A DNA stretch of 64,000 nucleotides. Source: Escherichia phage PNJ-6. The stretch is taken from the sequence record OQ076693; one strand, written 5' to 3'. The translations under genes were made by a program, and so were the position numbers. This document shows, piece after piece, positions 47,457-60,090 of the stretch (its first letter is position 1; each line of letters opens with the position of its first letter). The notes under the pieces are model-generated. The model had not been told where the DNA came from. It saw only the letters and a program-made list of their open reading frames with translations, and ran no database searches.

Positions 47457-48116
47457 TTAACCTCGATTCATAAATGCATTAAATATTTGGTCATCAACAG
47501 AAATTTCTAATTCGACTTCAATTGCTTCAGCCTTTTCTTCAGGTGGTAATTCGTATCCACACACTACAATTTTTTCATCGATATCAAAATATACAGAAGC
47601 AATATGATTAATGTTATTTTCAGTTAAGTCTAAATCAACATCAACATCTTTTTGACCTACACTTAAAGGATAACTAATACGGGTTATTTTATTATCTTTA
47701 ACAAAGAGTCCACCGACATACTCTGTACTACGTTTGAAGTTTACACGTTTCCGAAATGAAAGATATGATGCATCTTTACCGTGAGCTCGGCTCATAGGAC
47801 ATAATGAATAGCTAGAATAAGAGATGTCAAATCCTACACCTTCAATATGAGCCAACGCGTCGTGATTAAACCAATTATAATCATATGCCAAATCCATTAT
47901 ATTGTAATATGTGAAAGGCACCGGATTAACATCATACGTTGTACCTTTAAAATCTGCCCAGGCAACGATTTCGTTATCTTTAACAATTACAAAAATTACA
48001 CCAATATGGTATCCGTTATTATTTTCATTCGGCGTTATATTATAACATTGTGCATTAGGAAATTTACCATATTTAAATGGCGCATTTTTGTGCATATAAT
48101 AAATCATATTATTCAC
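47457..48116 (-). CDS. hypothetical protein
   Basis: 219-aa ORF, overlap-coupled to sp. Confidence 0.5.
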   Translation of the reverse strand: MNNMIYYMHKNAPFKYGKFPNAQCYNITPNENNNGYHIGVIFVIVKDNEIVAWADFKGTTYDVNPVPFTYYNIMDLAYDYNWFNHDALAHIEGVGFDISYSSYSLCPMSRAHGKDASYLSFRKRVNFKRSTEYVGGLFVKDNKITRISYPLSVGQKDVDVDLDLTENNINHIASVYFDIDEKIVVCGYELPPEEKAEAIEVELEISVDDQIFNAFMNRG

Positions 48117-48402
48117 CTGTGATTTCGGTTACGATATCTTTGTTATCGAAATTAGGGTCACAATACAAAACATAATTGTACTGCATAATACCGCCAGACT
48201 TAAGTTGTTCAACAACTTTATTAACCATATTAGGACGGTCTCGTTTAGTGATGTTCATGATATCAGAGAAGATTTGTTGTTCAACATCTTCTTGATTTGC
48301 AGTCATTGACCACTCACAGAGGTCTTTATCATAACCTGCCGTAACTGGAGCTGGTGCACATGATACTGCAAGTAAGATTGCTGCCAATGATAACTTTTTC
48401 AT
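48109..48402 (-). CDS. sp: Spackle-like periplasmic protein (lysozyme inhibitor / superinfection exclusion)
   Basis: 97-aa ORF with signal peptide (MKKLSLAAILLAVSCAPAPVTA) and conserved core GYDKDLCEWSMTA...SGGIMQYNYVLYCD; early promoter 48432-48461. Confidence 0.78.
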   Translation of the reverse strand: MKKLSLAAILLAVSCAPAPVTAGYDKDLCEWSMTANQEDVEQQIFSDIMNITKRDRPNMVNKVVEQLKSGGIMQYNYVLYCDPNFDNKDIVTEITGE

Positions 48403-48431
48403 TTTAACTCCTTAGTTGATTTGATAGGACT

Positions 48432-48461
48432 ACTATACTATAGTCCATCTATAATGTAAAC
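48432..48461 (-). promoter_or_regulatory. T4-type early promoter for sp (-35 GTTTAC, 18 bp, -10 TATAGT)
   Basis: rc of 48456-48461 is GTTTAC; rc of 48432-48437 is TATAGT; 30 nt upstream of the sp ATG. Confidence 0.5.
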
Positions 48462-48465
48462 AGGT

Positions 48466-48714
48466 TTATTCTTTTTCGCGAATAATAATTACTTGTTGAG
48501 GCTGCTGAGCAGATTTCTTTTCGGCAACGATAGACCAAATTAAAGTTCCGATCCAACCAATCATCGTCCAGTTAAAGAGTAAAGATATAAAGAAGATTGC
48601 TGTTGTGCTTTTTGTGCCACGAATAAGTGCGATTACCCAAGGCAACATGTAAATGATGATTGAACCAATACCTGCGATTAAAACTGCTACTGAACTAGCT
48701 ACGAATAATTCCAT
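48466..48714 (-). CDS. Imm-like superinfection immunity membrane protein
   Basis: 82-aa ORF with two TM helices and the family signature YMLPWVIALIRGTKSTTAIFFISLLFNWTMIGWIGTLIWSI. Confidence 0.6.
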   Translation of the reverse strand: MELFVASSVAVLIAGIGSIIIYMLPWVIALIRGTKSTTAIFFISLLFNWTMIGWIGTLIWSIVAEKKSAQQPQQVIIIREKE

Positions 48715-48775
48715 GTTAATTTCCTCTTAATTTGTTATGTTTATAATATCTTGTTTTAACTTTGGTGTAAACCAA

Positions 48776-49144
48776 TTAATTAAATTTGTTTAAACGTTCA
48801 ATACACTGGACGTAGTTATTCGCGATTTGTTTCTGGGTAGGCTCTTTACCAGTTGTTTCAACATAGCGAATGAATGCGATTTCAGTAGCCTGTAGACAAT
48901 GTTCTTTAACGCGTTGTTCTTTTGACAATGCTACAGTATCAGAGTCACGATAACGTTGAGCATGGGCATCAGCTTGAATCATTCGATTACCTACAGTAAC
49001 CGGGTCTTCCACTTCAACTTTAGGTTGGTCATACTGTTTAACATTAGGATTGTAAATCAGTTGGCCAACGTTATTAGGGATAAAGCCATGGGCACCACAT
49101 CCGGTTAATCCAAATACCATTGCTAAAGCGATTAATTTTTTCAT
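48776..49144 (-). CDS. putative lipoprotein
   Basis: 122-aa ORF; signal peptide plus lipobox (MKKLIALAMVFGLTGC). Confidence 0.6.
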   Translation of the reverse strand: MKKLIALAMVFGLTGCGAHGFIPNNVGQLIYNPNVKQYDQPKVEVEDPVTVGNRMIQADAHAQRYRDSDTVALSKEQRVKEHCLQATEIAFIRYVETTGKEPTQKQIANNYVQCIERLNKFN

Positions 49145-49204
49145 TTCAATTTCCTCTGTAGTTGATAAAAAGATAGTAACACAGTATGTGGTGCTTGTAA
49201 ACAG

Positions 49205-49480
49205 TTATTTTAAACTTTTGCGAAATTTGCGTTTTTCTTGACGAATCTGTCGTTTAGTCGGACGTACAGCAAATTTAACGAAGTCCACTTTGCCGTGTGG
49301 AAACTTTTCAGATGCTTCACAGTCCATCATTAGTTCCCATCCTTCCAGAATAAGAGCTTTCCATTGTGTAGTTGATGCAAATTCGTATGTTGATGGTTTA
49401 AACACAGTTGAATACATATTATCCTCTGAAATCAGCTTCAAAAACTTTCTCGTCATTAACAAATGCTTTAACAAGTGCAC
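49205..49480 (-). CDS. hypothetical protein
   Basis: 91-aa ORF; overlaps the next gene, start may be internal (MYSTVFKPS...). Confidence 0.4.
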   Translation of the reverse strand: MHLLKHLLMTRKFLKLISEDNMYSTVFKPSTYEFASTTQWKALILEGWELMMDCEASEKFPHGKVDFVKFAVRPTKRQIRQEKRKFRKSLK

Positions 49481-49610
49481 TGTTCACTTCAGCGAGTTGT
49501 ACAGCAACCCACTCGATTTCTTCACGGTCACCTGATAACATGATATCTTTAGTGAACATCTCACCACTTTTAAACCAACCAATAAAAGTAACTTTAGTTA
49601 ATTTGCTCAT
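49419..49610 (-). CDS. small protein, possibly Dmd-like antitoxin
   Basis: ORF 49419..49631 trimmed to ATG with SD GAGGAAAT (MSKLTKVTFIGWFKSG...), 63 aa; in a T4 61.x-type neighbourhood where dmd lies in T4; call by size and synteny only. Confidence 0.4.
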   Translation of the reverse strand: MSKLTKVTFIGWFKSGEMFTKDIMLSGDREEIEWVAVQLAEVNSALVKAFVNDEKVFEADFRG

Positions 49611-49924
49611 ATTTCCTCGCAAAATGCCCATTCAGCGTGATAAACTGTAGCACCTTTAGTATTATTCATTTGAACTACGTCTACCGGAGAAATTACTCGA
49701 TAGAGACGTGGTTCACCTCCATAAGAGCGTGCTGCTCGTCCCGCATAAATCTTTGCTAAACCGATATCTTCAGTAAAGAATACCCGATCCAAGTTTTTCT
49801 TACGTCCTGTTTCAGACAGAACTCCTGTTTCCTCAGGAGGACAAAGCATGTTTTCGATGTTAGCTGAACTGCTTGAACCGTGATAAAAAATCTTAAATTC
49901 TGCTTTACAATCGATGGTTTTCAT
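49607..49924 (-). CDS. hypothetical protein
   Basis: 105-aa ORF (FYHGSSSS...RLYRVIS); early promoter 49951-49979; ATGA-coupled to next gene. Confidence 0.5.
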   Translation of the reverse strand: MKTIDCKAEFKIFYHGSSSSANIENMLCPPEETGVLSETGRKKNLDRVFFTEDIGLAKIYAGRAARSYGGEPRLYRVISPVDVVQMNNTKGATVYHAEWAFCEEI

Positions 49925-49979: not shown

Positions 49980-50354
49980 TTAAAAACGTAATTTAGATAC
50001 ATCTGCGTTGATTTCGTTTTGGTTTGCGTCGTATGCAATTAAACGAACCGCTTTAGATGGGTCATTCAATGCATAGAAATGATGGAACATTGCTCGAACG
50101 ATATCACCATTTACGAGTTCTACCTGGATAGGAGAACCTTTTTCGAGTTGGAAATGTTCATAAGCTTTGATGGTTCGCAGATAATCAAGTTTTTGATTTC
50201 CGGCTCCAACAATTTGTACGATACGTTTGCCCATGTTTTCCATACGAGATACAATAGTTTTAGGAGCAAGAATAACATAGGTTGCCAGCGGAGAAACTAC
50301 TTCAACAGTTGTGTTTTCGGTGATTGCAGTAAAAATTGCTTGAGACATATTCAT
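49980..50354 (-). CDS. hypothetical protein
   Basis: 124-aa ORF directly downstream of gene 41. Confidence 0.5.
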   Translation of the reverse strand: MNMSQAIFTAITENTTVEVVSPLATYVILAPKTIVSRMENMGKRIVQIVGAGNQKLDYLRTIKAYEHFQLEKGSPIQVELVNGDIVRAMFHHFYALNDPSKAVRLIAYDANQNEINADVSKLRF

Positions 50355-54049: not shown

Positions 54050-54949
54050 TTATTCCTCGATTACGACATCTTCATATTTAGGTATATTATACGGCGAAGA
54101 AATTAAAGCATTAAAGTAGATGAACTCGCCAAGACCTGGATGGAATACTTCTTCAGGATTTTCGAAGTATTGAATCTTCGGACGTCCTTTAAGAATTTGA
54201 TAGTACTCAGTTTTAGTTGGTTTAAAAATTCGAATCAGCGCTTCTTCAGGATACTTATTTCTGTCGAAGCTATTATTTGGATCGGTTATATAAAGCGGTT
54301 GACCTAATTGAATTGCACATTCAACCACTTGTTCAAAACGATAGCACGGGTCACTAATTCGAAATGGATGAAAAATACCATCTAGATGAATAGGAGCCAA
54401 ATCACCTACAAGACGCTGCATGATGGAAGGACGTATAACTTTCTGCGTTACGATAATCTTATTACCATCTGCACCTGCGTTAACCAGCACTTCTTTTTGA
54501 CGTTCATTCAACACAGTAGTTTGAAGTGAACGATTAACAGACAACATGTCGGTTTTTAAGAATTCGTCAATATAAAAACGTGGTTTATTAGGGTCTGCAG
54601 TGATATTGAAATTGAATTCTACGTCAAAATTGCCGTCATATCCAGTGATATCTGTGATTAGAAAATCACAATCATAATAATCAATTAATGAATCAACCAC
54701 AAATTCATTTTCAGACCAGAAATATTTACGAGTGTTATATGCGTTATCTTTATACCATAATGGAACAAACTTAAATTCTGGGAAAAGACGTTCGCATTCT
54801 TTAATATCAGATGCATTACGTGGATATGTAATCACATCACCCGGATTAGCACGGTGCAAATGAAGTTGGAAGTTGCCATCCTTAAGGATAGCATACTGTC
54901 CAGTTTCATAAGACCGCATACTCAAGATAGGTACGCGGAAAATAGCCAT
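54050..54949 (-). CDS. hypothetical protein (in place of T4 beta-glucosyltransferase)
   Basis: 299-aa ORF immediately upstream of gene 42, overlap-coupled; no recognisable motif by eye. Confidence 0.5.
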   Translation of the reverse strand: MAIFRVPILSMRSYETGQYAILKDGNFQLHLHRANPGDVITYPRNASDIKECERLFPEFKFVPLWYKDNAYNTRKYFWSENEFVVDSLIDYYDCDFLITDITGYDGNFDVEFNFNITADPNKPRFYIDEFLKTDMLSVNRSLQTTVLNERQKEVLVNAGADGNKIIVTQKVIRPSIMQRLVGDLAPIHLDGIFHPFRISDPCYRFEQVVECAIQLGQPLYITDPNNSFDRNKYPEEALIRIFKPTKTEYYQILKGRPKIQYFENPEEVFHPGLGEFIYFNALISSPYNIPKYEDVVIEE

Positions 54950-55665: not shown

Positions 55666-55683
55666 GTTTACCTCAATACAGTT

Positions 55684-55708
55684 ATTATATACTCAATTCA
55701 TAAAGCTT
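55684..55708 (-). promoter_or_regulatory. possible MotA-dependent middle promoter for gene 42
   Basis: Minus-strand AAGCTTTA (near match to the MotA box) 11 bp upstream of TATAAT (rc of 55684-55689); about 20 nt upstream of the gene 42 ATG. Confidence 0.3.
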
Positions 55709-55785
55709 ATTTGAATTTCTTAGCGATGTTGATATAACGTAAAGCTTCAGCATCGATATTTCCAAGAACACTATGAAGAAATGCA

Positions 55786-55947
55786 TCAGCGTAGTATTCT
55801 AGTTGAACAGGTTTCTTTAATCACTTTAGCCGCTTTAGTTTCAAACAGGCCCATAAGGGCCTTTTTAAGAATTTGTTCGTTGCTGTTAATTTTAATAGTC
55901 AAAATCTCTTCGTTAAGTTGGTGGTTAAAAGTTTTTCTAGAAATCAT
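55786..55947 (-). CDS. small ORF (53 aa) coupled to the upstream cassette gene
   Basis: Below ORF-track cutoff; ATG overlaps the stop of ORF 55944..57104 (ATGA); contains a GGCCC-TTAT-GGGCC hairpin, so it could instead be a terminator region. Confidence 0.25.
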   Translation of the reverse strand: MISRKTFNHQLNEEILTIKINSNEQILKKALMGLFETKAAKVIKETCSTRILR

Positions 55948-57104
55948 TCTGGGTACCTCAAAGCGTCATCAGAGTTAGTTATATCAATAATAGATATAGA
56001 GTTTTCTGATAACCCATTTTTAGATAACTGACGTTTATAATATCTTTCACAATATGTACACGTCGTCCCGCAGATTTCATTAGCACAATCGAAATCTGGA
56101 TGTTTGAACCACCTTTTTTCTAAAAAGCCATCTAACAAAGAGGTTTCAATATTTACCGTATGTGAAAACTCAGTCTCATTTTCAAGAGTGAAAATGGTCT
56201 CTAAAGGCTTCCACAATTCCAACAAATTACCTTCAAACTTTTCAGAAGCGTAAGCTTCAAGAACTTTCAAAATGTAGTCGGTGCTACCTGTACGTCCTGA
56301 AACTTTAAATTGAGTGATACCAATATCATTATAAAGTTTCAAATCTTGGGGACGAACAAAACGAGTTCTCAACCAGTTAAATGGGTCTGTATCACGAGCT
56401 TTAATACAGTGCTGCATAGGATATCCATTTAAGGATTTAGCATCATCAGCTGTAACATCAGTACTATGGAAAATATAGCAAGAGTCACGATAGCTACAAT
56501 GTGTTGTATACCCTTTACCAGCATTAGAACAGAACTCATTTACAAGAACTTCAAATATTATATTGTTCTTATTACAAAACTCTGCTGCACGCTTCAGGAA
56601 AGAAACTGAACGGTTCTTATGAATTCCACAGCAGACCTTTTTGATATTATATTGGTCATGCAAGTATTTGATTTGAGTTACAGCATCGACATGTAGAATT
56701 GTTGAAACTTCAATCTCAATGTCTTTATTGACTTCACGAACAATTTCCATAACAACAGGGTTAGCGATAGTAATACGCCATACGCCTATTGACCAAAGAT
56801 ACTGAACATAATCCTGAATAGCTTTCTTCTTCCACTCAACTAGTTCTCTTTTTGAACCAGGATTTATCGTGTTGAGTGTATAGTTAAAGCAAATACCTAA
56901 TTCGTTACAACGTTTAACGTAATCTTCTAACATCTTTTTGTCAACGTCAGGAAGCCTAAAATCAGGTCTGGCTGCTACAAAAGCCATTTCTCTTGTAGAG
57001 CCGTATACTTCGTTTATCAAGCTATTAGGATAAGTTTTATTGAGCTCTACGATTTTATCAAGAAGAGCTAAATCAAAATTCGTTCCGATTTTAAAAGTAT
57101 TCAT
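55944..57104 (-). CDS. Cys-rich protein, distant peptidase-U32-like resemblance; function unknown
   Basis: 386-aa ORF; segment FEVLVNEFCSNAGKGYTTHCSYRDSC resembles the U32 signature; C-terminal cysteine cluster CANEICGTTCTYCERYY; first gene downstream of the sugar cassette. Confidence 0.35.
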   Translation of the reverse strand: MNTFKIGTNFDLALLDKIVELNKTYPNSLINEVYGSTREMAFVAARPDFRLPDVDKKMLEDYVKRCNELGICFNYTLNTINPGSKRELVEWKKKAIQDYVQYLWSIGVWRITIANPVVMEIVREVNKDIEIEVSTILHVDAVTQIKYLHDQYNIKKVCCGIHKNRSVSFLKRAAEFCNKNNIIFEVLVNEFCSNAGKGYTTHCSYRDSCYIFHSTDVTADDAKSLNGYPMQHCIKARDTDPFNWLRTRFVRPQDLKLYNDIGITQFKVSGRTGSTDYILKVLEAYASEKFEGNLLELWKPLETIFTLENETEFSHTVNIETSLLDGFLEKRWFKHPDFDCANEICGTTCTYCERYYKRQLSKNGLSENSISIIDITNSDDALRYPE

Positions 57105-57161
57105 TTTTTTTGCATCTCACGTTAATTGACGCGATGGTTTTTGCAGGTCTTACTTAAATTA

Positions 57162-57563
57162 TTATAGATTCGGTTTATATGATTTAAATGTTTCGAATTC
57201 GCCTTTATTCATAAGAGCTTTGAATTCGTCAGGACGCATAGCTTTATCGTCGATAATCCAATCATATACTGGTTTATGTGTTAGCAAATTATGGTACTTC
57301 AAGCCAATGTTTGCCAAGTTCTGAATCAGACTTGGGAGAATGTCAATTGCTATACGACCAGGACCGACTGACTTCATACCGCGAGCAGTGTAAAGCGTTA
57401 TGGTATGCCCTGCATCATACAGGGCATTAATGGCAGACACCATTTCGACGTCTGGTTTGAAGTTCACGTAATCACGATTGTTATTCCACTCTGTTATACA
57501 ATCATCGACATCAAAACAAAGATTAAGCATGTTTTCTACACGGTGCATTAGATTCGTTCCCAT
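57162..57563 (-). CDS. HAD-superfamily phosphatase (minimal)
   Basis: 133-aa ORF with HAD motif I DxDxT (LCFDVDDCITEW), motif II-like TARG, motif IV-like acidic pair (YDWIIDDKA). Confidence 0.6.
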   Translation of the reverse strand: MGTNLMHRVENMLNLCFDVDDCITEWNNNRDYVNFKPDVEMVSAINALYDAGHTITLYTARGMKSVGPGRIAIDILPSLIQNLANIGLKYHNLLTHKPVYDWIIDDKAMRPDEFKALMNKGEFETFKSYKPNL

Positions 57564-59233
57564 TGATGAGTGATATCGCCACCGATTGGACGATAAGAAA
57601 CACCAGTTTCTTTATCAGTTAGTACCCATTTACCAGGATTTTTTGTAATCAGAGTAGCCGTTACAGGTTCTGCTACGTCATAACTAATAGAGCCGTCCTG
57701 AAGTACACGGCCCATGTTACGTAATTGCTTAGTCAGAAGTTCCATACCTTTATAATATGCGGCTACCGCTTTAAGTGGATTATTCTTGAAATAACCACCT
57801 AATGCAATCCAGATAATTGCCACTGCCAAATGATGATACTCGTTAAACGAACTCATCTTTCCATATTTGTAAACTAATGGATTGATGTTAATAGTCACAT
57901 TACAAGTTGTTTCATCAATAGTAAACTGGCCCCAGGTCGGATTAGCGTTGAATTCATCATAACCTGAAACAGCATAAAGCACTTTAGCTTCATCGTACAA
58001 TTTTGGCCCGTAAATCTTGGTTTCGCCAAAATATCCACGAGGGTCGATAAACTTGACTTCACCGTTATCAGTAATCATAGTATTACTGAAGTTCGGGTCG
58101 CCATGAATAACAGAGTACTGTCCCTGAGAACGGTTATGATAACGAATAAGATGTTCTAAAGCTTGTTTCAGCATTGGCTTCAGACGCCCAATCTTAGTGT
58201 AGTTCACATGTGTGATTTTACCAAATGAATCAATCAATGGTTGAATACTTTCACAACGATCAATAACTTTCGTATAGAATTCTTTAGTGAAATCACGGCG
58301 AACAGTTTCAGGACTTACAAAATAAGTGTCTGTGCTGAATTTCAGTGCATCTAAAATTGCATCAACAATTTGTGGACGAGCAAGACTCGATTTGGATTTA
58401 ATATATTCAAATGCCGGCTTACCTTTAATGCGTTCCATTTCAAAGTTATTTTCATTAACAGAAACTAACTGAGGAACTGAATCTGATTTCACTTTAAGAT
58501 ACCATGAAATCTCATCTTTCTGAAGAGCTCGACCCTGTTCGGTTAATGCGAATTTAGTTACAGTTTCTTCACCAATTTCAACTGCATTAAAACTACGATT
58601 AAGTTCACGAACTTCATGAGCTTTTTCAAGTTTAGGCATATCACCTAAATCAATTAGATTCATAAGCTCTGATTTATTGAATGCACTGCCGTAAAGAAAT
58701 TCTACGAAATCACGTCCTTTGCAGTATTCATGAATTTCCTCATCAGTAGAGCCCATATAGAATTCCCAGTCTTTGAACTGATAAATTCCTACAACATTAC
58801 CACCTGTTGAACCTACGTTAGTGATATTTTCACCGTCGAAATTATATCGGCATTCGTCACCCTTAACATAGATTGCGTTAACATTCCAAGACCATGAACC
58901 GAAATCAGGAATAATATCACACCAGTTAACAATTACATTATGGCCGTCTAAATCTTTGTGTAATTTAGCAAGAGCATAAGCAGAACCATACGCTTCATCA
59001 ACTGTACGAATAGTCACATTGAACCCTTCTTGCTCACAATAAGCTCGAACAGTTTCAGCAAATTTTGAATGAACTACTACAATAATTTCATCTGCGCCAA
59101 GGTCAGAATAAATTGTATACAAATTGCTCAGAATAGTGTCTTGTTTATAGTTAACAAGCACCTTAGGAATATGATGCGTTATTGGATACAAACGAGTTGC
59201 CAGTCCAGCACCAAGAATAACAGCTTTTTTCAT
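57548..59233 (-). CDS. bifunctional sugar kinase / sugar-1-phosphate nucleotidyltransferase
   Basis: 561-aa ORF; N-terminal NTP-transferase signature (MKKAVILGAGLATRLYPIT...PKVLV); C-terminal APH/choline-kinase-type motif (VIHGDPNFSNTMITDNGEVKFIDPRG); overlaps the HAD gene by 16 nt. Confidence 0.7.
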   Translation of the reverse strand: MKKAVILGAGLATRLYPITHHIPKVLVNYKQDTILSNLYTIYSDLGADEIIVVVHSKFAETVRAYCEQEGFNVTIRTVDEAYGSAYALAKLHKDLDGHNVIVNWCDIIPDFGSWSWNVNAIYVKGDECRYNFDGENITNVGSTGGNVVGIYQFKDWEFYMGSTDEEIHEYCKGRDFVEFLYGSAFNKSELMNLIDLGDMPKLEKAHEVRELNRSFNAVEIGEETVTKFALTEQGRALQKDEISWYLKVKSDSVPQLVSVNENNFEMERIKGKPAFEYIKSKSSLARPQIVDAILDALKFSTDTYFVSPETVRRDFTKEFYTKVIDRCESIQPLIDSFGKITHVNYTKIGRLKPMLKQALEHLIRYHNRSQGQYSVIHGDPNFSNTMITDNGEVKFIDPRGYFGETKIYGPKLYDEAKVLYAVSGYDEFNANPTWGQFTIDETTCNVTININPLVYKYGKMSSFNEYHHLAVAIIWIALGGYFKNNPLKAVAAYYKGMELLTKQLRNMGRVLQDGSISYDVAEPVTATLITKNPGKWVLTDKETGVSYRPIGGDITHQWERI

Positions 59234-59414
59234 GTTGTGGTCCTCATTGGTAAGTAGGAGTATTGTACACTATTCTAGTTAAAGCATTCATACTTTGCTT
59301 GTAGTCCAATCATAATCCATCCGATTACAAGTGTTGGAATCATTACTGGAGCTTAACGGCTCCAGTAGATAGTCATGACAAGCATCAATAGTAAAAGTCC
59401 TATTGTTATTGCTT

Positions 59415-60050
59415 TCATTGTTCGCCTCGTAACATGGCACCTAGTGCACCGCCAGGGTGGAACTTAAGGAAGTCATTAGAGGTAAATCCACGTTCAGACG
59501 AAAGGTTGATAGCAAACGTATCGATAAGCGCTAACAACAATGTAGTGGACATGGTCGGAGCCAGAGAATTCTCATCAACCTCTACTGCGATGCCTGTACA
59601 GAAAGAGTAATCAAAAAGGGCTTCATTTTCTTGTGGAATGTCTGGGTTACAATGCAACAGAATCTGTTTGACGTTCGGACGAATCATTTTAAGATGCTTA
59701 GCCACACCTATCATTTCTTCAGTTTTACCAGAACGACTAATATGAATCAACACATCATTAGGCGCAATGAATCCTGCATCACCGTGAGAATAATGCCCTG
59801 TGTTCAAGTACATACTCGGGATACCGAGTGAAGCAAATGTCTCAGAAGCTTTAGTTGCAATATTAGCATTCTTACCAACACCTGTAATAATTACTCGGCT
59901 TTCATAATTACTAAGTCCCGGGCGTCGAAGAGTTTCTAGAATAGCATTATAACGAGCAGGGTTTTGACTAATTACTTTGGCCATAGCGGCCAAAGAAGAA
60001 GCTTGTTTTATGATTGCGTCAATAGCGATAGTAATAGGAGTAGTTTTCAT
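59415..60050 (-). CDS. SIS-domain sugar-phosphate isomerase (arabinose-5-phosphate isomerase-like)
   Basis: 211-aa ORF with KdsD/GutQ-type SIS motifs (ITGVGKNANIATK; HISRSGKTEE; LAPTMSTT; HPGGALG); no CBS domains. Confidence 0.75.
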   Translation of the reverse strand: MKTTPITIAIDAIIKQASSLAAMAKVISQNPARYNAILETLRRPGLSNYESRVIITGVGKNANIATKASETFASLGIPSMYLNTGHYSHGDAGFIAPNDVLIHISRSGKTEEMIGVAKHLKMIRPNVKQILLHCNPDIPQENEALFDYSFCTGIAVEVDENSLAPTMSTTLLLALIDTFAINLSSERGFTSNDFLKFHPGGALGAMLRGEQ

Positions 60051-60090
60051 ATTTCTCTCATTTAATTAGTTTACCGTCCATGACATTATA

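Follow-up and report, generated by a model that had tools for sequence, protein, structure and literature searches.

The window analyzed here is a 64,000-nt stretch of DNA from Escherichia phage PNJ-6 (OQ076693). This phage is a Mosigvirus, and its DNA is 98–99% identical to RB69, JS09 and pEK20. Positions 48109-49144 carry three consecutive minus-strand ORFs of 97, 82 and 122 aa, which are sp, imm and imm.1 (Table 1).

The arrangement is already known and not new, because the RB69 GenBank record AY303349 names sp, imm and imm.1 in this order. The RB69 genes (AAP75937, AAP75938 and AAP75939) share order, orientation and flanks (61.2 on one side, 61.4/dmd on the other) with those of the window, at 98% DNA identity over 2.3 kb. 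A 2.3-kb query spanning the locus is matched over at least 80% of its length by 154 database records. The closest is pEK20, 99.0% identical with point differences only. As a genome feature the locus matters little: the RB69 record has carried its genes, their names and their order since 2003, and they are fixed across the genus. For the 61.4 homologue, the RB69 annotation (213 nt) places the start at an internal ATG.

Table 1. Features at the sp-imm-imm.1 locus and in the 42-43 interval of the window
Feature	Positions	Strand	Evidence
Gene 61.2 homologue (AdfA, anti-DarT factor A), downstream flank	47457..48116	-	PF23813 4.7e-121; RB69 and T4 annotations
sp (gene 61.3), Spackle periplasmic protein, 97 aa	48109..48402	-	PF25676, phrog_1586, T4 Sp alignment, RB69 'sp'
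Promoter-like site upstream of sp	48432..48460	-	TTTACA-17-TATAGT preceded by G; 10/12 matches
imm, superinfection immunity inner-membrane protein, 82 aa	48466..48714	-	PF14373, phrog_1039, T4 Imm alignment, RB69 'imm'
Promoter-like site upstream of imm	48743..48771	-	TTTACA-17-TATTAT; 10/12 matches
imm.1, predicted lipoprotein, 122 aa	48776..49144	-	PF17578, phrog_1754, T4 Imm.1 alignment, RB69 'imm.1'
Promoter-like site upstream of imm.1	49173..49201	-	TTTACA-17-TACTAT; 9/12 matches, with TG
Gene 61.4 homologue (DUF7279), upstream flank	49205..49417	-	PF23945 6.2e-20
Candidate arabinosyl-hmC sugar cassette in 42-43 interval	55944..60050	-	Domain matches; RB69 ORF050c-055c; PMC6024577
Peptidase_U32-like gene of cassette	55944-57104	-	Domain match
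NTP_transferase gene of cassette	57548-59233	-	Domain match
Small hydrophobic ORF remnant at ancestral site	59275..59418	-	Alignments; RB69ORF054c, phrog_3610 type; PSD2001 peptide
SIS domain gene of cassette	59415-60050	-	Domain match

The three gene products and their promoter-like sites

The initial annotation had described an Sp-like protein with a CEWSMTA...YVLYCD motif, a two-TM Imm-family protein with YMLPWVIALIRG...WTMIGWIG and a lipoprotein with an LTGC lipobox. All three descriptions hold. Sp is matched by PF25676 (T4_Spackle) along the entire profile (positions 1-96/96) with 145 bits against a cut-off of 27 (1.1e-42), and by phrog_1586 (2.9e-42). It is 66% identical to T4 Sp at full length, across 97 aa, and the T4 protein has the same length and an equally long signal peptide.

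A hydropathy scan finds a single N-terminal hydrophobic stretch in Sp, a predicted signal peptide. The mature part retains Cys29 and Cys81, aligned with those of T4 Sp, which form a disulfide in the T4 Spackle structure (PMC7677548). T4 Sp (gp61.3) is periplasmic after signal-peptide cleavage, where it binds the gp5 tail lysozyme of the superinfecting phage and inhibits it (PMC7677548). Judged from its identity to T4 Sp, the window Sp would bind and inhibit gp5 tail lysozyme too.

T4 Imm is an inner-membrane protein that stops incoming phage DNA from crossing, so that the DNA is left in the periplasm. The initial annotation had proposed a family profile as the check on the Imm-like ORF, and PF14373 (Imm_superinfect) matches it with 57 bits (1.8e-15; cut-off 27.9), nearly the score of T4 Imm itself (58.2 bits). 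The match to phrog_1039 has an E-value of 1.1e-30. The window protein, at 82 aa against 83 in T4, is 65% identical to T4 Imm at full length, and both end in an identical VIIIREKE. Like T4 Imm it has two hydrophobic segments, at about 3-31 and 38-63 with R32 and K35 between them (boundaries read from the sequence). In the hydropathy scan, segment 1 passes the 19-residue threshold and segment 2 does so only marginally. With this full-length likeness, the window Imm would confer immunity to the entry of superinfecting T-even DNA.

The third protein begins with MKKLIALAMVFGLTGC and has one N-terminal hydrophobic stretch in the hydropathy scan and the lipobox LTG|C16 with Gly at +2. It is matched by PF17578 (DUF5481) with 37.3 bits (3.7e-9; cut-off 27) and by phrog_1754 at full length (5.1e-29). 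By these sequence comparisons, it is an orthologue of T4 Imm.1 (NP_049661), with 32% identity over the full length (E 1e-18), and T4 Imm.1 falls into the same Pfam and PHROG families. The two share the lipobox, the length, a YR-S motif, a Cys pair and the position directly upstream of imm, whereas an extra Cys pair of T4 (C33/C45) is absent from the window protein. Invariant in the family alignment are Y65, R66, S68, E76, C83 and C114.

The AF2 model of Imm.1 has a mean pLDDT of 63.5 and reaches about 90 for residues 80-120. Only the C-terminal helical hairpin, which carries the conserved Cys83 and Cys114, is confident, and the poorly predicted N-terminal stretch is probably a flexible tether. 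A Foldseek search against the PDB with this model gave no match at E ≤ 0.001.

Imm.1 belongs to a narrow family. A word-indexed homologue search gave three matches, an exhaustive HMMER search of 1.84 billion representatives just nine at E ≤ 1e-3, and no bacterial relatives were found in these searches. The lipobox and the C-terminal Cys pair recur in homologues from six other genera. Predicted lipidation is not universal in the family, because the metagenomic homologue P0002 has no lipobox cysteine. Another match, P0003, is from its sequence an apparent fusion with a DNA-polymerase fragment and probably an assembly chimera.

Each of the three genes is preceded by a Shine-Dalgarno-like GAGG/GGAG motif and, at the expected distance, by a promoter-like site. 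The pattern sought was of the T4-early, sigma-70 type, (G)TTTACA-17-TAnnnT, and the sites are consensus matches rather than mapped starts. The site before imm.1 resembles the T4 promoter there (CTGTTTACAAG...TACTAT...TATCAACTAC). The site before imm has no T4 counterpart, because T4 imm.1 and imm are just 11 nt apart; the window imm thus differs in having a promoter-like site of its own. The imm.1-imm gap is 61 nt in the window and 10 nt in KpnM6E1, and the genes overlap by 4 nt in Muldoon. In several genera, the two are close enough for translational coupling.

Relocation of the imm.1-imm pair

The T4 gene order is 43-imm.1-imm-42 ... 41-dmd-61.4-sp-61.2, which bears out the earlier statement that T4 imm lies between 42 and 43. 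In the window, by contrast, imm lies beside sp, and the imm.1-imm unit, with order and orientation as in T4, is found between 61.4 and sp. Gene 61.2 adjoins sp in T4 too, and sp in both phages sits between the 61.4 side and 61.2, but T4 sp comes directly after 61.4. Since 61.4 abuts sp in T4, the pair was inserted between them. Since Imm.1 is already the upstream neighbour of imm in T4, the two genes moved together as a unit.

The 42-43 slot of the window holds a sugar cassette, as the initial annotation had noticed, with SIS-domain, nucleotidyltransferase and other genes in 55666-60090. The RB69 counterparts of the cassette genes are ORF055c and ORF53_52c, which are candidate arabinosyl-hmC genes (PMC6024577). 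A homologue of the small ORF found after imm in T4 and Gaprivervirus was left behind in the 43-42 interval, where an in-frame TAA at 59353-59355 shortens it. The sequence at 59348-59363 may hold an inverted hairpin loop. The RB69 annotation there reads 'similar to T4 42-imm intercistronic region'. At the cassette junctions, no duplicated recombination sequences were found. What the intergenic regions have in common is limited to generic early-promoter and RBS motifs, so that no clear recombination scar was seen.

Besides T4 and Mosigvirus, the genera compared were Gelderlandvirus, Dhakavirus, Gaprivervirus, Muldoonvirus and Jiaodavirus. S16, dhaeg, PSD2001, Muldoon and KpnM6E1 all have imm beside 43. 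The gene is thus kept there in T4 and in five other sampled genera, in agreement with the proposed relocation next to sp. The T4 proteins do align with those of the window, and most sampled genera do not have imm beside sp. With five further genera on the side of T4, the T4 position is ancestral and the Mosigvirus position derived.

It is very improbable that the Mosigvirus order came first and that the pair was later transferred to the 43-42 interval in T4 and the other genera. Apart from the tidy look of grouped exclusion genes, we found no support for it. It has to face that imm adjoins 43 in six other sampled genera, including the distant Muldoonvirus, Jiaodavirus and Gelderlandvirus, and that the small ORF following imm in T4 and Gaprivervirus is still at the Mosigvirus 43-42 site. 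As sp, imm and imm.1 keep separate promoters, judged from the promoter-like sites, the derived position next to sp probably means nothing for function in itself.

Imm.1 as a possible companion of Imm

In each of the seven sampled genera, a phrog_1754 lipoprotein adjoins imm or is separated from it by one small ORF. Outside T4 and the window, the proteins are those of S16 (5e-46), Muldoon (2e-26), dhaeg (2e-52), PSD2001 (1e-46) and KpnM6E1 (2e-15), all with a lipobox and two C-terminal Cys. The pair occurs in three arrangements, imm.1-imm beside 43, imm-imm.1 beside 43 and imm.1-imm beside sp. BLASTP between Imm.1 and the S16 and Muldoon neighbours gave no match, hhalign with a small Imm.1 alignment was weak (probability 9%, E about 0.003), and these two neighbours are linked to Imm.1 only by the broader phrog_1754 profile. 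The lasting adjacency of the two genes suggests, though it does not prove, that Imm.1 works with Imm.

The initial annotation took the lipoprotein as an addition to the relocated immunity gene and suggested a profile search for Cor/Llp-like families. A reading along that line is that a newly acquired Cor/Llp-type blocker of an outer-membrane receptor joined the relocated imm to form a new exclusion island by sp. In its favour, the protein is a small lipoprotein encoded in the early region beside two exclusion genes. Cor (phi80, N15 and HK022) and Llp (T5) are likewise small phage lipoproteins, early and thought to act at the envelope. However, the window protein is not an addition, being orthologous to the Imm.1 that is already the neighbour of imm in T4, and the same PHROG family adjoins imm in seven genera.

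The profiles point the same way. Neither Cor nor Llp families match the window lipoprotein in Pfam (E ≤ 0.1), PHROGs (E ≤ 0.01) or NCBIfam (E ≤ 0.1), and we reject a Cor/Llp-like identity for it. The sole Cor match is that of the Muldoon homologue (E 0.012), and it covers residues 1-25 alone, the signal peptide and lipobox. In sequence and profiles, the relationship is limited to the lipoprotein signal peptide, and receptor blocking of the FhuA type by Imm.1 finds no evidence there. A newly acquired blocker is therefore hardly credible.

Altogether, the locus is very probably the standard T-even superinfection-exclusion gene set (sp, imm and imm.1) of an RB69-type phage, with imm.1-imm relocated and Imm.1 probably associated with Imm. 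Imm.1 would be lipidated at Cys16. Because it has no Asp at +2, the Lol pathway probably carries it to the outer membrane, on whose inner face it would sit, the E. coli +2 rule being the sole basis for this sorting. By its model, a flexible tether would hold a small helical hairpin, stabilised by a disulfide, out into the periplasm.

Most likely, Imm.1 serves the envelope process in which Imm acts, whether as an accessory to the entry block or as a second layer of it, and is not an independent new exclusion factor, because it stays beside imm in seven genera and moved with imm here. Possibly, and we propose it tentatively, T-even exclusion has a third component that has been overlooked, namely Imm.1, which would face the periplasm and work with Imm, for example by bridging or marking the outer-membrane side of the DNA-entry site. 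The reason is that an Imm.1-family lipoprotein is beside imm in seven genera through three rearrangements, one being the joint move in the window.

Alternatively, Imm.1 may be unrelated to exclusion and have another task in the envelope, for instance in the timing of lysis, in lysis inhibition, in stabilising the envelope or against an envelope defence of the host. It would stay by imm only as both are small early membrane genes of the same variable region. This is conceivable but somewhat doubtful. Plasmid-borne T4 imm alone reportedly conferred immunity in the work of Lu and Henning. In that case Imm acts without needing Imm.1, whose role may lie elsewhere. The separate promoter-like sites of imm and imm.1 in the window, the Foldseek search that returned no match and the literature, in which we found nothing on the function of Imm.1 or DUF5481, also fit a separate role. 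On the other hand, the adjacency survives three rearrangements across seven genera, whose proteins are in part only about 30% identical, and it does so where these genomes vary most, which chance can hardly explain. The spacing of the pair in several genera, which would allow translational coupling, also argues for the tie of Imm.1 to Imm.

The imm.1 gene is thus a testable lead, an uncharacterised T4 gene for a conserved predicted lipoprotein that is genomically linked to imm. If Imm.1 partners Imm, it would offer an experimental handle on how Imm blocks DNA entry. One comparative paper merely names Imm.1 as a T4-group marker. Annotation pipelines often mislabel imm.1 as 'iduronate sulfatase', 'capsid and scaffold protein' or 'immunity protein'.

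Three genes and their T4 counterparts

Three consecutive minus-strand ORFs fill 48109-49144 of the window, exactly as the initial annotation described, and all three score above the cut-offs of their family profiles. Their products are full-length orthologues of T4 Imm (65% identity, E 5e-37), Sp (66%, E 2e-50) and Imm.1 (32%, E 1e-18). The window Imm and T4 Imm (58.2 bits) score practically equally against PF14373. T4 Imm.1 has a lipobox too (LAGC) and scores 239 bits against DUF5481. Hence, the lipoprotein is not an addition, as had been proposed, but imm.1, already the upstream neighbour of imm in T4.

Features of the window at the locus and around the old imm site
Feature	Position	Strand	Product, matches or sequence
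61.2 homologue	47457-48116	minus	PF23813 AdfA, anti-DarT factor A, 4.7e-121
sp	48109-48402	minus	97 aa; PF25676 T4_Spackle 145 bits (cut-off 27), whole profile; phrog_1586 'spackle periplasmic'
imm	48466-48714	minus	82 aa; PF14373 Imm_superinfect 57 bits (cut-off 27.9); phrog_1039 'immunity to superinfection'
imm.1	48776-49144	minus	122 aa; PF17578 DUF5481 37.3 bits (cut-off 27); phrog_1754
ORF between dmd and 41	49607-49924	minus	RB69ORF040c (phrog_2110)
ORF between dmd and 41	49980-50354	minus	RB69ORF041c (phrog_10668)
Single ORF	54050-54949		299 aa; RB69 annotates ORF046c and ORF047c there
Nucleotidyltransferase fusion	57548-59233	minus	one 561-aa ORF, N-terminal nucleotidyltransferase domain; RB69 ORF053c + ORF052c
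Small hydrophobic ORF	59275-59418		between SIS and nucleotidyltransferase genes
Hairpin within small ORF	59348-59363	minus	GGAGC-CGTTAA-GCTCC

A hydropathy scan finds an N-terminal hydrophobic stretch in both Sp and Imm.1. In Imm, it finds a clear first segment and an only marginal second one; read by eye, they span about 3-31 and 38-63 with R32 and K35 between. Imm.1 begins with MKKLIALAMVFGLTGC, a standard lipobox. Sp keeps both Cys29 and Cys81, which pair as a disulfide in the structure determined for T4 Spackle (PMC7677548).

Upstream of each gene, a 60-63-nt intergenic region contains a promoter-like site, (G)TTTACA-17-TAnnnT, together with a Shine-Dalgarno-like motif, with the same look as in T4 early genes; these sites are consensus matches rather than mapped transcription starts. 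The strong AdfA match of the 61.2 homologue places an anti-defence gene right next to the exclusion genes.

The feature is already known from RB69, as its annotation (AY303349) reads 61.2, sp, imm, imm.1, 61.4, dmd and so has the three genes and their order on record. A 2.3-kb query spanning the locus matched 359 phage records, 154 of them covering at least 80% of it and 155 with a best match of at least 95% identity. The closest are all RB69/JS09-type phages of the genus Mosigvirus, pEK20 being the best (99.0%; RB69 98.0%). By tblastn, each protein has 153-154 matching records with an identity of at least 95%. From these sequence matches, the arrangement is consistent with being fixed across the genus.

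Linkage and relocation of imm.1 and imm

The conserved imm/imm.1 linkage is the only lead worth following at this locus. It was traced with phrog_1754, a broader PHROG profile that is matched over its full length in all seven tabulated proteins.

Proteins matching phrog_1754 and their gene orders
Phage	Genus	Protein	E	Order
PNJ-6 (window)	Mosigvirus	Imm.1	5e-29	61.4, imm.1, imm, sp
T4		Imm.1	6e-43	43, imm.1, imm
Salmonella phage S16	Gelderlandvirus	gp27	5e-46	43, imm.1, imm
Serratia phage Muldoon	Muldoonvirus	gp043	2e-26	43, imm.1, imm
Klebsiella phage KpnM6E1	Jiaodavirus	gp025	2e-15	43, imm.1, imm
Escherichia phage dhaeg	Dhakavirus	dhaeg_213	2e-52	43, imm, imm.1
Escherichia phage PSD2001	Gaprivervirus	UIS66270	1e-46	43, imm, imm.1

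Each of the seven proteins carries a lipobox, in the form LTGC, LAGC or LSGC, and, towards its C-terminus, a pair of cysteines separated by about 30-40 residues. All seven genes adjoin imm, with one small ORF intervening in PSD2001. The imm.1/imm gap is 11 nt in T4 and 10 nt in KpnM6E1, and Muldoon has a 4-nt overlap. For a more distant Imm-like gene, that of Proteus phage SJ_PmiM (Bragavirus), the two flanking genes scanned gave no match to phrog_1754.

The adjacency has outlasted three rearrangements in the most variable part of the genomes, with protein identity down to about 30%. This is good contextual evidence, short of proof, that Imm and Imm.1 share a function.

In T4, the genes run 43, imm.1, imm, 42, beta-gt, segA, uvsX, 40, 41, dmd, 61.4, sp, 61.2, 61.1, 61. 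Since imm is immediately downstream of 43 in each of the five further genera compared, the T4 position is ancestral and the Mosigvirus one derived. Thus, the move of imm to the side of sp noted in the initial annotation is real, but imm did not move alone: the two-gene unit moved, with order and orientation as in T4, and only its position differs, between 61.4 and sp.

The new neighbourhood is probably incidental, because each of the three genes has a promoter-like site of its own and the move coincides with a sugar cassette occupying the old site. No specific recombination scar was found at the new site, where the intergenic regions have nothing in common beyond generic early-promoter and RBS motifs. 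In T4, dmd directly follows 41, without counterparts of the two window ORFs between them.

The old site between 43 and 42

The window's 42-43 interval holds a SIS-domain gene, the nucleotidyltransferase fusion and further genes. They correspond to RB69 ORF050c-055c, candidates for arabinosyl-hmC synthesis (Thomas et al. 2018, PMC6024577). ORF053c and ORF052c were proposed to be a single gene that a sequencing error broke in two in the RB69 entry (PMC6024577), and the one 561-aa window ORF supports this. The 299-aa window ORF, where RB69 has ORF046c and ORF047c, is a similar case.

The small hydrophobic ORF here is a trace of the old arrangement, which stayed behind when imm.1-imm moved. In T4 (NC_000866, 11221-11373), its counterpart directly follows imm and lies unannotated in the stretch between imm and 42; in PSD2001 of Gaprivervirus, the counterpart (2740-2883, 47 aa, phrog_3610) directly follows imm too. 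The conserved peptide of about 47 aa ends in ...MIPT..LGW.....Q.KYEC.N.

The hairpin in this ORF reads GGAGC-TTAACG-GCTCC in RB69, TH58 and SQ17, whereas the window's 6-nt loop is the reverse complement. Loop apart, the window equals TH58 throughout the 221 nt aligned. Not one of the 153 Mosigvirus records that match attains 99% identity over this length, which makes the inversion apparently unique to the PNJ-6 genome. By introducing an in-frame TAA, it shortens the conserved 47-aa membrane peptide (RB69ORF054c/phrog_3610 type) to 21 aa. It reflects either a true mutation by loop inversion or an artefact of assembly.

What Imm.1 may be

By the E. coli sorting rule, lipoproteins without Asp at +2 from the lipidated Cys go to the outer membrane. 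All seven Imm.1 homologues lack Asp at this position, so outer-membrane transfer is predicted for Imm.1. The lipobox Cys is missing in one metagenomic homologue. The alignment has invariant Y65, R66, S68, E76, C83 and C114. In the AF2 model, only a C-terminal helical hairpin is predicted with confidence (pLDDT about 90 at residues 80-120); prediction is poor for the N-terminal 45 residues, in keeping with a flexible tether. A Foldseek search of the PDB with the model found no structure at E <= 0.001.

Our best inference, at somewhat less than an even chance, is that Imm.1 is a periplasm-facing, disulfide-stabilised lipoprotein that acts with Imm in one envelope process. An envelope role unrelated to that process would be the chief alternative. 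T4 imm cloned by itself reportedly gives immunity, so Imm.1 would be accessory at most. The Cor/Llp-like profile search suggested in the initial annotation returned no match for the window Imm.1 in Pfam, PHROGs or NCBIfam; the single Cor match was the Muldoon homologue (E 0.012), over signal peptide and lipobox only.

The public product names of the family are misleading. 'Iduronate sulfatase' in T4 RefSeq NC_000866 and apparently NC_018855 (HX01), 'capsid and scaffold protein' for UIS66270 (OK254198) and 'immunity protein' in many others had no support seen here.

The family is narrow: searched exhaustively with HMMER, 1.84 billion representative proteins yielded only nine hits at E <= 1e-3. 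One of them, a 198-aa ENA metagenome protein in which a DNA-polymerase-I-like fragment is joined to 28 residues 100% identical to the end of Mosigvirus Imm.1, appears to be a chimeric metagenome assembly.
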